Positions 35,908 through 42,473 of a DNA stretch of 64,000 nt are shown piece after piece. How positions within the stretch are numbered: position 1 is the first letter of the stretch; each line of letters begins with the position of its first letter. The translations under genes and the position numbers were made by a program. The notes under the pieces were generated by a model. That model worked only from the letters and a program-made list of their open reading frames with translations. It did no database searches and had not been told where the DNA came from. The stretch covers positions 4,064,001 through 4,128,000 of the forward strand of contig OY762721.1 of assembly GCA_963666345.1 (NCBI GenBank), read 5' to 3'. The stretch is from Desulfatiglandales bacterium (GTDB taxonomy: Bacteria; Desulfobacterota; DSM-4660; Desulfatiglandales; Desulfatiglandaceae).

Positions 35908-36315
35908 TCAATCTTTGAAAGGAGTGAATTTGGGCAGGCTGACGGTTTCAGATACATCCTCCCAGACAAGGTTCACAGGCATCTCGCAGAACAGTTCAGA
36001 GGGCCTGCATCCGACAATATTCGTAAGTATTTTTGGTCCTTCGGCAAGTTTGACAACCGCAGTTGCGTAGGGGAGGTCTTTTTTGAAGGCAGGGTGAAAG
36101 GCGATATGGTAGACGACATAACTGTATATGGCTCCTGTGCCGCCTGAAACAATCCATTTTGCTTCGAATGAATGGCACTGCGGGCATATTACCGAAGGCG
36201 GCCATCTAACATGGTCACAATTTTTACATTTCTGAAACCTCAACTCATGTTCTCTGCAACCTTTCCAGAATTCTTTCGTATCGGCATTGGGTCTCGGAAG
36301 TGGTTTTGAATACAT
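35908..36315 (-). CDS. DUF35 Zn-ribbon/OB-fold protein (ChsH2-like)
   Basis: FW.G, QKCKNC..WPP..CPQC, G.IYSY, PY..AVV.L.EGP. Confidence 0.92.
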   Translation of the reverse strand: MYSKPLPRPNADTKEFWKGCREHELRFQKCKNCDHVRWPPSVICPQCHSFEAKWIVSGGTGAIYSYVVYHIAFHPAFKKDLPYATAVVKLAEGPKILTNIVGCRPSELFCEMPVNLVWEDVSETVSLPKFTPFKD

Positions 36316-36316
36316 T

Positions 36317-37498
36317 TCAAAATCTCCTCAGGATTATGGCGGTGCTGCTCTGAAATACGGCCCCATTGTCCGAACATAGAATGAGCTCCGGGGTTTTGTT
36401 CCCGGTTTTCGGGCCAAGCTGCCTTTGTTCGCACCGTCCCATGAGTTGCATAACGGCCTCGGTAATCGGTGTGAGACCCATGAAATAAGACTCCGAAAGC
36501 AAGCCGCCCGAGGTGTTTACAGGGAGCCTTCCTCCGGGCGCAGCGCGCCCGTCCTTGAACCATTCCTTGCCCTCGCCGGGCCTGAAAAAACCAAAATCCT
36601 GAAGACTGATTTCAACCGTGTAGGTAAAACAGTCATATATCTCACATGCGTCAATGGCGTGCCTTGTTATGCCTGCCATCTCAAAGGCCTTTTTGCCTGA
36701 AAGGGCCGCACCGGTCGGGCCGGCCATTATATCCGACTGATGGATATCCACGGAGGTATTGTGCTCACCTATTCCCATTATTGTGACGGTCGGATGACGC
36801 AGGTCGCGTGCCCGTTCGGTTGAAGTAATTATGCATGCCCTCCCGCCATCCGAGACAAGGCAGCAGTCATCTCTTCGGAAAGGCTCCACCACCCATTCCG
36901 AATTGAAGTAATCCCGATCAGTGAGCATTTTCTTGTTTGACATTGCAAGGGGATTAATGTTTGCCCATTTTCTCTGGCTTACCGCAATTTCCTTCCATGT
37001 GTCCGGTCCTGTTCCGAACCTATGCATTGCTCTTCTGGCCGCCATAGCAAAATTTGCAACACGGCTGAATTCTCCAAAGGCGGCAATGTCGTCCGGGTGC
37101 TCACTGTTGGTGGCACCTTCTGCAAAGCTTCTTCTGCCGGACAGGGCGTTATCGCCATAAACAAGAAGCACATAATTACAGAAACCCGCATCCAAGAGGC
37201 TTATTGCGTGGAGAACCTGCCCCCTGGCACAGTAGGATTCCTGGCTCATGATCGCCGGTTGGATTCCCAGGTGCTGCGCAACAAGGTATGGGGTTACCGC
37301 TACGTCATTTGCAAGAGGATGGAACTGTCGGTAGCAGATAAGGCCGTCTATATTATCCTTGCCAAGCCCCGAGTCCTTTATGGCGTTGGCACACGCCTCG
37401 ACATGGAAGCTGAGGGCGGAGCGCTCCGGTACCCTGCCCTGGGGGGTATATCCTACGCCGACTATGGCGTATTTATCCTTGAGCCTAGTTCCTGCCAT
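36317..37498 (-). CDS. Thiolase-fold protein (SCP2/Ltp2-like)
   Basis: AIVGVG, DCCLVSDGG, IYDCFT, PVNTSGGLLSESY; 1-nt gap to DUF35; start at MAGT behind GGAG. Confidence 0.87.
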   Translation of the reverse strand: MAGTRLKDKYAIVGVGYTPQGRVPERSALSFHVEACANAIKDSGLGKDNIDGLICYRQFHPLANDVAVTPYLVAQHLGIQPAIMSQESYCARGQVLHAISLLDAGFCNYVLLVYGDNALSGRRSFAEGATNSEHPDDIAAFGEFSRVANFAMAARRAMHRFGTGPDTWKEIAVSQRKWANINPLAMSNKKMLTDRDYFNSEWVVEPFRRDDCCLVSDGGRACIITSTERARDLRHPTVTIMGIGEHNTSVDIHQSDIMAGPTGAALSGKKAFEMAGITRHAIDACEIYDCFTYTVEISLQDFGFFRPGEGKEWFKDGRAAPGGRLPVNTSGGLLSESYFMGLTPITEAVMQLMGRCEQRQLGPKTGNKTPELILCSDNGAVFQSSTAIILRRF

Positions 37499-37741
37499 GT
37501 TATAACTCCGCACCAAGTATAAAGGATTCGCCTTCCCTTTGTTGCAAGGAAAGAATAAATTATCGGGGTTACCCTGTCAAGAAAGGCCAATGTCCACAGG
37601 CATATTTGTCTTTGTGAGGACATCTTAATCGGACGTTGGATTAGGGGTGCCGGCCGGGGGGGTGCCGAATTTACGGATGCTCACTTATAGGATAGGGAAA
37701 AATCGAGTTTATGGGAAAAAGAGCAAAATTGCAAAACCGGC

Positions 37742-40010: not shown

Positions 40011-40535
40011 ATGGAAATGGATATCTTCGAAAAGATGGATACATCGGAGCTTGCAAAGTATATCGAATTTTTGCTTTGGCACTACAGGGTAGTCGATGCC
40101 TTCTGGTTTATATTTATTGAAGATAAATACGGCAAACCTGTTGCGGAAGAAATCAATGAAAAGGTATGGGGAAGAGTCTCAGGTATGGCGATAAAGGATT
40201 TGATTTCAAAATTCAATATAGAGGAAAAGGGACTTAAAGGCTTTACAAAGACCCTGAGACTTTTTCCATGGTGCATACTTGTTGGGTATGAAATAGAGGA
40301 ATCGGATAAAGAGGTGTTTGTATCGGTAAGATCCTGTCCTACTCAGATGGCCAGGATAAAAAGAGGACTGGGTGAATATGTGTGCAAGGAAATGCACAGG
40401 AGGGAATTCGTCGGAATAGCGAATGCCGTGGATGAAAATATCGATGTGGAATGCATGTTTGCACCACCTGATCCCCATCCTGATGATATGTTCTGTAAGT
40501 GGCGTTTTACAGTTAAGGATGGAAAAAACTGTTAG
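40011..40535 (+). CDS. Conserved Cys-containing protein (DUF6125 / V4R-like)
   Basis: [28 protein letters not shown]...CKWRF; GAGGAGG RBS. Confidence 0.7.
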
Positions 40536-40768
40536 GGCGGCTTAGGAAGTGTCATGAAAACAGAGAATTATTAATGATCGCTTAAGGAGGCTTCAGTGCA
40601 TATTTGTTTGCCGGCAGCAATTTTGACCTTGACATCCGCTCTGGTAATGGCATAAAGAATAACATCATGTTTTCAGCACCTAAAAATATTGTTAATAATT
40701 CAAAGACGGAAAAAGGCTTGTCGGGCCGCCCTTTGATGGTAATGTCATCGGGAGAGTCTGATCCTCAA

Positions 40769-40816
40769 GTGTTCGTCGACTGTAATTGGTGGTGGAACAG
40801 CTGGTGGGCATCCTGA
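40769..40816 (+). CDS. Trp leader peptide 1 (MFVDCNWWWNSWWAS)
   Basis: Five in-frame TGG codons (40787-40795, 40802-40807); GTG start behind GGAGAG, with alternative in-frame ATGs at 40736 and 40742. Confidence 0.75.
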   Translation: MFVDCNWWWNSWWAS

Positions 40817-40856
40817 GTGCTCTTTGACCTGTGAGTCGAAGAATTCTTAAAAAAAT

Positions 40857-40893
40857 AAAGCCCGCCCTTTTTAAAAGGGCGGGCTTTTTATTT
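40857..40893 (+). terminator. Attenuator terminator 1
   Basis: AAAGCCCGCCCTT / AAGGGCGGGCTTT stem followed by TTTTTATTT. Confidence 0.88.
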
Positions 40894-40908
40894 GAAAGGA
40901 AAGGATCA

Positions 40909-40965
40909 ATGATTACTAAGAGAGAGAAAAAATGGTGGTGGCTTATGCACAAGCGGCGCGGGTGA
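40909..40965 (+). CDS. Trp leader peptide 2 ([18 protein letters not shown])
   Basis: ATG behind AGGAAAGGA; three consecutive TGG at 40933-40941; TGA at 40963. Confidence 0.82.
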
Positions 40966-41003
40966 ACTTCAGGCAGATGCCTTTAATGTTTACTCCAAGG
41001 CAT

Positions 41004-41042
41004 AAGCCCGCCGCTCATAAGAGCGGCGGGCTTTTTTTATTT
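41004..41042 (+). terminator. Attenuator terminator 2
   Basis: AAGCCCGCCGCTC-ATAA-GAGCGGCGGGCTT followed by a T run, about 50 nt before trpB2. Confidence 0.9.
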
Positions 41043-41090
41043 AATTATCTGAAAATAACAGAACAATACCGACAAAAAAAGGAGGCAACA

Positions 41091-42473
41091 ATGAGACATG
41101 AAGTGATTAATCTGGCAAAGGATGAAATGCCTAGACAATGGTACAATATCCTGGCGGACATAAAAGTAAATACGGCCCTTGGCCCGGACGGCAAGCCACT
41201 GAAGCCGGAAGACCTGGCACCTGTCTTTCCGATGAACCTCATAGAACAAGAAGTAAGCACGGAGCGGTGGATCGATATCCCTGATGAGGTAATGGATGTC
41301 CTGAACATATGGAGACCTTCACCTCTGATCAGGGCGCATTCTCTTGAAAGAGCCCTGGGTACCCCGGCAAAGATATATTTCAAAAATGAATCTGTGAGCC
41401 CTCCAGGAAGCCATAAGGCCAATACCGCCGTGCCTCAGGCATATTACAACAAGGAATTCGGGATAAAGAAGCTTACTACCGAGACCGGAGCGGGGCAGTG
41501 GGGAAGCGCGCTGTCCTTCGCATGCTCCCAGTTCGGTCTTGAATGCAAGGTTTTCATGGTCAGAGTAAGCTTTGAGCAGAAGCCATACAGGCGCACCATG
41601 ATGCAGGCATGGGGAGGCAACTGCGTGGCAAGCCCCAGCAGAGAAACCCAGGCAGGAAGAGATGCACTTGAAAAAGATCCTGATACTCCCGGAAGTCTGG
41701 GAATGGCAATAAGTGAGGCGATCGAGGAGGCGGTAGGAGACGTAAGCGGTAAGACGCGTTATTCACTCGGTAGCGTCCTAAATCACGTAATGCTTCACCA
41801 GAGTATAATCGGACTTGAGACAAAGAAGCAATTTGAAAAAATAGGCGAATATCCTGATATAATAATAGGTTGCGCAGGTGGCGGAAGCAATTTCGCGGGT
41901 CTGGCGTTTCCCTTTGCCTATGATAAAATGAGCGGCCGGGAAATAGAGATCATGCCCGTGGAACCCAATGCGTGTCCAACCATGACCAGGGGGCCCTATG
42001 TCTACGATTTCTGCGATTCCGCCGAATATACGCCTTTGCTTCCGATGTACAGCCTTGGGCACGACTTTGTCCCTGCACCGATTCATGCGGGAGGTTTGCG
42101 TTACCACGGTATGTCACCCACGGTAAGTCAGCTCGTGACAGAGGATATAGTCTCCCCCAGGTCTGTTTCTCAAATCGACGCGTACAAGGCGGGGGTCTTA
42201 TTTGCCAGGACAGAGGGTATTATTCCCGCACCTGAGACTACAAATGCCCTGGCATTGGTTGTTGAAGAGGCACAAAAGGCAAAAGAGGAGGGAAGGGAAA
42301 AGGTTATCGTAGCCAGCTTCAGCGGCCACGGCCTGTTGGATCTTGGAAGCTATGAGAGATTTTTCGCCGGTGAAATAATTGACTGTGAAATGCCAGAAGA
42401 AGTTATTACAAACGTAAATGAGTTGCTCAAAGACTATCCGAAACCGGATTTTGTGAGCAGCCTCAGACCATGA
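41091..42473 (+). CDS. trpB2: TrpB2-type tryptophan synthase beta chain (stand-alone)
   Basis: [21 protein letters not shown] (PLP Lys), [32 protein letters not shown]; real start 41091 behind AAGGAGG (the track start at 40932 runs through the leader). Confidence 0.95.

Follow-up and report, generated by a model that had tools for sequence, protein, structure and literature searches.

Two candidate tryptophan attenuators in series upstream of a trpB2 gene in a Desulfatiglandales bacterium

We report that a trpB2 gene of a Desulfatiglandales bacterium from sediment is preceded by two complete units in series, each composed of a short leader-peptide gene with tandem Trp codons and an intrinsic terminator (T1 and T2), at the positions that the original prediction had assigned to them (Table 1; all positions in the table and text are those of the window, i.e., the whole 64,000-nucleotide stretch of DNA that was analyzed, unless ascribed to the genome or to another locus). 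The double layout is real, and its anatomy suggests that the double attenuator is probably functional. The reading we favor, and hold to be rather likely, is that of two ribosome-mediated Trp attenuators acting in series on one transcript from the candidate promoter P1. The switch mechanism in itself is of the classical, textbook kind; the doubled layout is unusual and found in one lineage only.

The region in question (40536-41090) lies between a DUF6125 gene, itself placed behind the dctQ/dctM genes of a TRAP transporter, and trpB2. The product of the latter gene is a TrpB2 and not a TrpB1: it attains 695 bits against the profile NF009057 (cut-off 366) and 620 bits against TIGR01415 (cut-off 519), but only 148 against the TrpB1 model TIGR00263 (cut-off 392), and its closest relatives (70-76%) are labelled mostly as Desulfobacterales or Deltaproteobacteria. 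As had been suspected at the outset, the trpB start at 40932 in the open reading frame track is misleading, being in a different frame that reads through T2; the ATG at 41091, whose Shine-Dalgarno (SD) sequence forms an anti-SD duplex of -11.6, is to be taken instead. On the minus strand of the window (35908-37516), adjacent genes for a thiolase-like protein and a ChsH2 (OB-fold/zinc ribbon) protein are followed downstream by a FAD-linked oxidase-like ORF, with the TRAP transporter divergent from them; these genes represent a catabolic cluster adjoining trpB2.

Table 1. Features of the double leader and the gene behind it (window positions)
Feature	Position	Strand	Details
Promoter P1 (candidate)	40629..40658	+	-35 TTGACA 40629-40634; 18-nt spacer; -10-like TAAAGA 40653-40658
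Leader peptide 1	40667..40816	+	49 aa, ending in DCNWWWNSWWAS before the stop; probably leaderless
Hairpin within leader 1	40716..40770	+	-19.5 kcal/mol; partly buries ATG 40736/40742 and SD-like GGAGAG
Trp codons (WWW) predicted to act as sensor in unit 1	40787..40795	+	from ribosome-position folding
Antiterminator 1 strand GGUGGGC	40803..40809	+	shares bases with Trp codons 4-5; partner GCCCGCC 40860-40866
Hairpin after leader 1 stop	40815..40846	+	-8.9 kcal/mol; within antiterminator loop; holds P2
P2 promoter-like site	TTGACC 40824-40829 / TAAAAA 40848-40853	+	weaker than P1, 7.8 bits
Intrinsic terminator T1	40857..40893	+	stem 40857-40887, 14 pairs, -23.8 kcal/mol; tail U5-A-U3
SD-like AAGGA (twice) for leader 2	40896..40905	+	anti-SD duplex -6.3; unpaired in local fold
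Leader peptide 2	40909..40965	+	18 aa; Trp codons 40933-40941
Alternative antiterminator, leader 2 untranslated	40933..40948	+	Trp codons and CUUAUGC pair with 41000-41017
Antiterminator 2 strand AGCGGCG (KRR codons)	40952..40958	+	pairs with CGCCGCU 41009-41015
Intrinsic terminator T2	41004..41042	+	stem 41004-41033, 13 pairs, -27.8 kcal/mol; tail U7-A-U3
trpB2 (TrpB-like PLP enzyme)	41091..42473	+	460 aa; ATG 41091; SD AGGAGG 41080-41085

The Trp codons of leader 1 begin at 40787, 40790, 40793, 40802 and 40805, and its stop codon occupies 40814-40816. Its start had been placed at the ATG at 40736, which has no SD (anti-SD duplex only -2.5) and an unpaired probability of just 0.15 in the internal hairpin (0.34 at the SD-like GGAGAG); we rejected this start together with those at 40742 and 40769, as they lack a good SD at a usable distance, are partly buried and have no promoter at the distance typical of the related leaders described below. 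The ATG at 40667 fits better, and leader 1 most likely starts there in leaderless fashion because the spacing from TTGACA to ATG matches that of these relatives: it lies 32 nt past the end of the -35 element in frame with WWW, and 53 of 58 leader loci, the window included, have a TTGACA-like hexamer followed at 29-34 nt by an ATG that shares the frame of WWW, against a background of 282 of the 2874 TTGACA sites in this genome with any ATG at 29-34 nt. This geometry was not used to select the 58 loci, which comprise 50 chosen by eye among the matches listed in the class-wide pattern search, L029, L255, five other single-leader loci and the window, and leave out the single-leader loci L093 and L052. 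P1 is the best-scoring site in 40400-41090 by a matrix derived from the promoters of 52 related Trp leaders; its 12.3 bits are reached or exceeded at 6 of 63,800 plus-strand positions of the window and fall near the low end of the training promoters (5th percentile 10.3, median 22.3), and a generic consensus promoter scan did not pick it up. Leaderless attenuator peptides are known in Deinococcus deserti (PMC4007540).

Leader 1 has 40 codons ahead of WWW versus 10-22 (mode 15) in the other leaders. Inside leader 1, the ATG at 40742-40744 is separated from WWW by exactly the 15 codons that are most common in the leaders of the relatives, which suggests that 75 nt were inserted between the promoter and an older leader. 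The hairpin within the leader is possibly a pause hairpin. This unusual anatomy bears on a different and quite improbable interpretation, namely that unit 1 does not sense Trp at all, being either a poorly translated relic or a site at which T1 ends read-through from the TRAP-transporter/DUF6125 genes, with unit 2 alone regulating trpB2. Such a role would be consistent with the atypical length of leader 1, with an ATG at the modal distance that has neither promoter nor SD, and with the absence of any called terminator between the end of the upstream ORF at 40535 and leader 1; however, no stop interrupts the frame between the promoter-matched ATG and WWW, antiterminator 1 is undamaged and sits where it should, and beyond these two units WWW precedes a terminator nowhere else in the genome.

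Both units are also predicted to possess an antiterminator of their own, which the original prediction had not named and which is lost in the folds when the ribosome gets to the stop. We folded the nascent RNA up to the 5′ arm of each terminator while keeping the ribosome-covered stretch single-stranded, a procedure that leaves out the bulk of the ribosome and timing. Antiterminator 1 forms with a pair probability of 0.985-1.0 in the nascent fold, and its duplex of -15.4 compares with a shuffle mean of -7.8 (p = 0.010), while that of antiterminator 2 reaches -17.9 (p = 0.018; 2000 shuffles of the ORF tail in either case). In unit 1, a ribosome on W1-W2 allows the antiterminator to form, with the T1 arm sequestered at 0.6-1.0; on W3 the value is 1.0, 0.6 or 0.01 according to the footprint assumed, and on W4, W5 or the stop it drops to 0.0-0.1. 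In unit 2, the T2 arm is sequestered at 0.98 with the ribosome on W1-W3, and at 0.00-0.01 (9-12-nt footprint) or 0.43 (6-nt footprint) with the ribosome at the stop. The antiterminators of both units are predicted by these folds to be mutually exclusive with the terminators and switched by ribosome position, and 57 related leaders show the same stall/stop switching in the folds, their arms being sequestered at a median of 0.76 with a stalled ribosome and 0.19 with one at the stop. The earlier notion of two thresholds set by five versus three Trp codons does not hold up, since the fourth and fifth Trp codons of leader 1 themselves form the antiterminator strand, and termination is favored once a ribosome occupies them (arm sequestered at 0.00-0.04); in the model, each unit senses with 2-3 Trp codons. 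When the complete transcripts are considered at equilibrium, both terminators outcompete their antiterminators, so the switch must be kinetic.

In the folds, both units are open in the absence of a ribosome (0.88 and 0.87). The alternative antiterminator of unit 2 has a duplex of -24.7, a value that 0 of 2000 shuffles reach, and is the minimum-free-energy structure without a ribosome. A point against the switch model is that blocking 40945-40977 alone leaves the T2 arm 0.61 paired to the emerged Trp codons. The Escherichia coli trpL leader, by contrast, super-attenuates when it is untranslated; in the window the antiterminator strands lie inside the ORFs, and both units are predicted to be open under that condition.

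We propose that transcription from P1 would start at about 40664-40667 and that a ribosome would initiate leaderlessly at AUG 40667. With plentiful charged tRNA-Trp, this ribosome would run past WWW and cover GGUGGGC near the stop, allowing T1 to form; with scarce Trp, it would stall on the first Trp codons, and GGUGGGC would pair with the T1 5′ arm and let the polymerase pass. A second ribosome would load at the SD right behind T1, and leader 2, AGCGGCG and T2 would repeat the test, such that trpB2 would be expressed only if both gates report Trp shortage. Since both gates are predicted to be open when untranslated, one gate alone should leak whenever its ribosome is late. The model presumes that both leaders are translated and depend on Trp, and the second gate would lower this leak and steepen the response.

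Comparative analysis uncovered a further type of Trp leader. When 174 genomes of the class were searched for a pattern, 148 had a match, well over the reversed control, and a conserved leader came to light: a leaderless ORF begins 6-10 nt after a TA-type -10 element and usually has 15 codons and then WWW, and behind it lie two terminators with cross-complementary arms, spaced by about 52 nt (L255:1867-2095, L029, L260, L263, L266, L267, L269, L270, L276, L285, L286 and L288-L328). It might use domino antitermination between its two terminators, and our literature search found no paper on such a class-wide leaderless twin-terminator Trp leader. By crude motif labels, 52 loci of this family precede trpE-like (27), trpD-like (19), trpB2-like (2) and unlabelled (4) genes. 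The window shares with this family the TTGACA, the in-frame ATG 29-34 nt on, the WWW run and the two cross-complementary terminators. However, the family members have one leader, whereas the window has a second, SD-led leader: two terminators are present at 54 of the 58 loci, with a spacing of 35-61 nt everywhere but in the window (147 nt), and an SD-led WWW ORF between the terminators is present in the window only, the sole other locus flagged for this (L320) having a TTG-started W-x-W frame that overlaps its T2. Neither unit of the window matches the family profile built from the 52 loci (nhmmer, best E-values 0.98 and 4.1), and the arm motif [AG]CCG[TC][GA][GA]G, found in 51 of the 52 members, is in neither unit; instead, their terminator arms resemble those of the single-leader loci L064, L083 and L191. 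Elsewhere in the genome, the profile has weak matches (E = 2e-4 to 7e-3) at terminator regions at genome positions 3472204-3472275, 2228799-2228871 and 733660-733761, which are possibly other amino-acid attenuators.

The 3′ arm of T1 is complementary to the 5′ arm of T2 (-19.8 kcal/mol), so the gates may be coupled, and their independence is uncertain in the folding model. In a coupled version, the T1 3′ arm, freed while ribosome 1 is stalled and the T1 5′ arm is taken up by antiterminator 1, would pair with the T2 5′ arm and open T2 whatever leader 2 does, and leader 2 would decide only after ribosome 1 moves on and T1 refolds; gate 2 would then serve as a second look when shortage is mild and be skipped when starvation is deep. 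The cross-pairing attains 0.99 with antiterminator 1 forced and the ribosome at stop 2, and cross-complementarity is likewise typical of the one-leader twin-terminator loci of the relatives (median -16.9). Nevertheless, we regard such a relay as unlikely: the cross-paired state arose only when imposed on the fold, the 14-bp hairpin of T1 prevails once the T1 3′ arm is made and the cross-pairing then goes to 0, a distance of 120 nt and a translated ORF separate the arms, and the alike GC cores of two terminators would cross-pair without any function. It is conceivable, if doubtful, that a double gate retains the relay of the relatives, with two checks at mild shortage and the T1 arm overriding gate 2 in deep starvation. 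If true, this would mean that the system arose from a design with one leader and two domino terminators by gaining a second leader, and its response would have a shape unlike that of single attenuators or independent tandem riboswitches.

Among 205 loci, we found the trpB2 start in 202, six of these being copies from or identical to this genome. Eight other trpB2 loci have, by eye, a plausible single Trp leader with a terminator (L029, L041, L052, L064, L083, L093, L121 and L191); five more automatic hits look like out-of-frame readings (one of them inspected), and a candidate unit in L027 was discarded as an out-of-frame reading of the upstream gene. The short Trp leaders of L041, L093 and L121 come with two terminator-like hairpins before trpB2, and those of L041 and L093 appear SD-led rather than leaderless. 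In L178, trpB2 is preceded by a T-box-like leader with GGCAACGCGGG, which we take to be the T-box motif, and then a strong terminator, with no leader peptide. Paired WWW-ORF-plus-terminator units, for which the original prediction had pointed to the trpB2 genes of relatives, are found in none of them besides the window and near-identical strains.

The relatives also include SD-led short leaders with their own promoter (L041, L083 and L093), and P2 is the second-best promoter score in the region. Unit 2 might by the same token have its own promoter, be it P2, with a start at about 40860-40863, or another internal start, in which case the sensing by gate 1 would be bypassed. We deem this very unlikely: the score of P2 lies below the 5th percentile (10.3) of the training promoters, chance alone would give 0.11 sites of this kind per 270 nt, and sites starting behind T1 score at most 1.7 bits. 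Moreover, a transcript from 40859-40863 still folds 8-12 bp of T1 (-22.1 to -11.7) before the U tract, so a P2 transcript should mostly stop there.

Other searches recovered the double unit, within their scope, only in this lineage. A search with the leader DNA in 208 other genomes of the same order gave only hits of 25-48 nt, in 15 of them. The pattern WWW-N115..145-WWW occurs at 25 places in 18 of the 174 class genomes, and the 24 besides the window read as GTG-rich coding frames, with a crude terminator flag true for 2 of the 24. A second pattern gave 43 places in 40 of 401 genomes of the phylum; among the 30 inspected, a terminator follows both Trp runs only in the window, and the other 13 were judged by their first 80 bases alone. 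A loose pattern matched in 113 of the 174 genomes, mostly as coding background among the matches listed. Its one promising match, L255, turned out to have a single leader and a pair of terminators. The comparison genomes include none of the same genus, and other double units could be missed because WWW-N115..145-WWW and the second pattern each admit only a small range of spacings and codon contexts. As no second double unit was found in the relatives searched, selection for the double layout is shown only at the strain level.

At that level, the layout recurs in several assemblies, and the evidence suggests that it is not an assembly artefact. The 600 nt upstream are identical in the metagenome contig L126, which may be of the same source, and a 30.7-kb contig (X2), possibly the source itself, has 0 differences over 40300-41600. 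Contigs of X5 differ at 40856 and 41042 among the differences listed. The contig X7 (record 26), which comes from a different study, shows a gap-free alignment at about 95% across 40781-41405 (30 differences in 625 nt), and among its listed differences one is in the leader (40856, outside the stem).

Within the genome, the pattern TGGTGGTGG-N66..96-GGYTTTT matches just twice when both strands of the 4.16 Mb are counted, at units 1 and 2; as the pattern was written knowing the site, this count shows rarity and not function. A looser genome-wide scan for WW-ORFs plus hairpins gave 37 rows, with unit 1 appearing twice, and no hairpin in it is as strong as those of the two units (-27.2 and -22.3), the runner-up being at -19.3. 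They share a 71-nt WWW-to-terminator spacing and a 9-nt terminator core; their identity (17/62) is at background level. A recent tandem duplication was rejected on these grounds, the offsets of 146-147 having z-scores of 2.4-2.9 versus a best of 3.1 at 218, and a third, decayed unit one period upstream is without support. An old duplication is a possible origin of the two units. Neither unit looks decayed, because each antiterminator fits its own terminator via a different sequence.

Tandem T-boxes are two same-signal tRNA-binding RNA switches in series. Tandem TPP riboswitches (PMC9481103) likewise make two same-signal terminate/read-through decisions in series, and such same-ligand tandems steepen the dose-response; there the sensor is an aptamer, whereas in the window it would be a translating ribosome. 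In an Rfam scan of the leader, no family reaches its gathering score, the Trp_leader family RF00513 attaining 22.1 of 41 bits and the trpB motif RF04312 22.6 of 59 bits. The closest textbook parallel is the E. coli-type trpL (RF00513; PMC3641672, PMC1183508), which has a short tandem-Trp ORF, a competing antiterminator, an intrinsic terminator and a Trp-synthesis gene; the window differs in having two complete units, a probably leaderless leader 1, a lone trpB2 target and no TrpR found. The claim that a tandem pair of translating-ribosome attenuators had not been described was too strong: the Salmonella mgtCBR leader (PMC3641672) has two translated short ORFs, mgtM and mgtP, each controlling read-through. 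However, as portrayed in that source, these respond to two different signals (ATP and proline) through stem-loops unlike intrinsic terminators, whereas the window has Trp codons twice, ahead of intrinsic terminators. Our literature search found no paper on a same-amino-acid attenuator pair, and the accessible parts of PMC2965389, PMC1262725, PMC8632094, PMC4833913 and PMC1183508 do not describe two complete same-amino-acid units in series; the surveys of Lopatovskaya et al. (2010) and Merino et al. (2008) could list some. Synthetic tandem attenuators shift thresholds (10.1101/003335), and, on the basis of these and of attenuation-sensitivity models, stacked attenuators are expected to lower leak and steepen the response.

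In the single-contig, 96.7%-complete genome, we found no match to the trpE, trpA, trpC, trpD and TrpR families, with positive controls matching, nothing above the cut-off for TrpB1 and only a borderline 69-position match for trpF. There are two trpB2 paralogs, 62% identical, with a Trp leader at one of them. The second has a non-coding stretch of about 300 nt upstream (upstream of genome position 1711530; L002:2870-3160, minus strand) without a Trp leader. A high indole affinity and the use of O-phospho-L-serine are reported for TrpB2 enzymes (as cited in PMC11917138). Given that the genome yielded no trpE, trpD, trpC, trpA or trpB1, trpB2 probably salvages indole; judging by its gene content, the organism is a probable Trp auxotroph that does so, and the leader-controlled copy would make Trp from scavenged indole. 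Four other genomes with a single-leader trpB2 carry trpA. Double gating is not required for the indole-salvage role; nonetheless, a rule by which both gates must report shortage suits a cell without a de novo Trp pathway that salvages indole.

If the favored reading of two attenuators in series is true, the leader would be a compact natural pair of same-amino-acid ribosome sensors, the counterpart of pseudo-cooperative tandem riboswitches. It would also link this trpB2 copy to Trp supply where the de novo pathway is missing, and would thereby bear on the role of TrpB2 in vivo.
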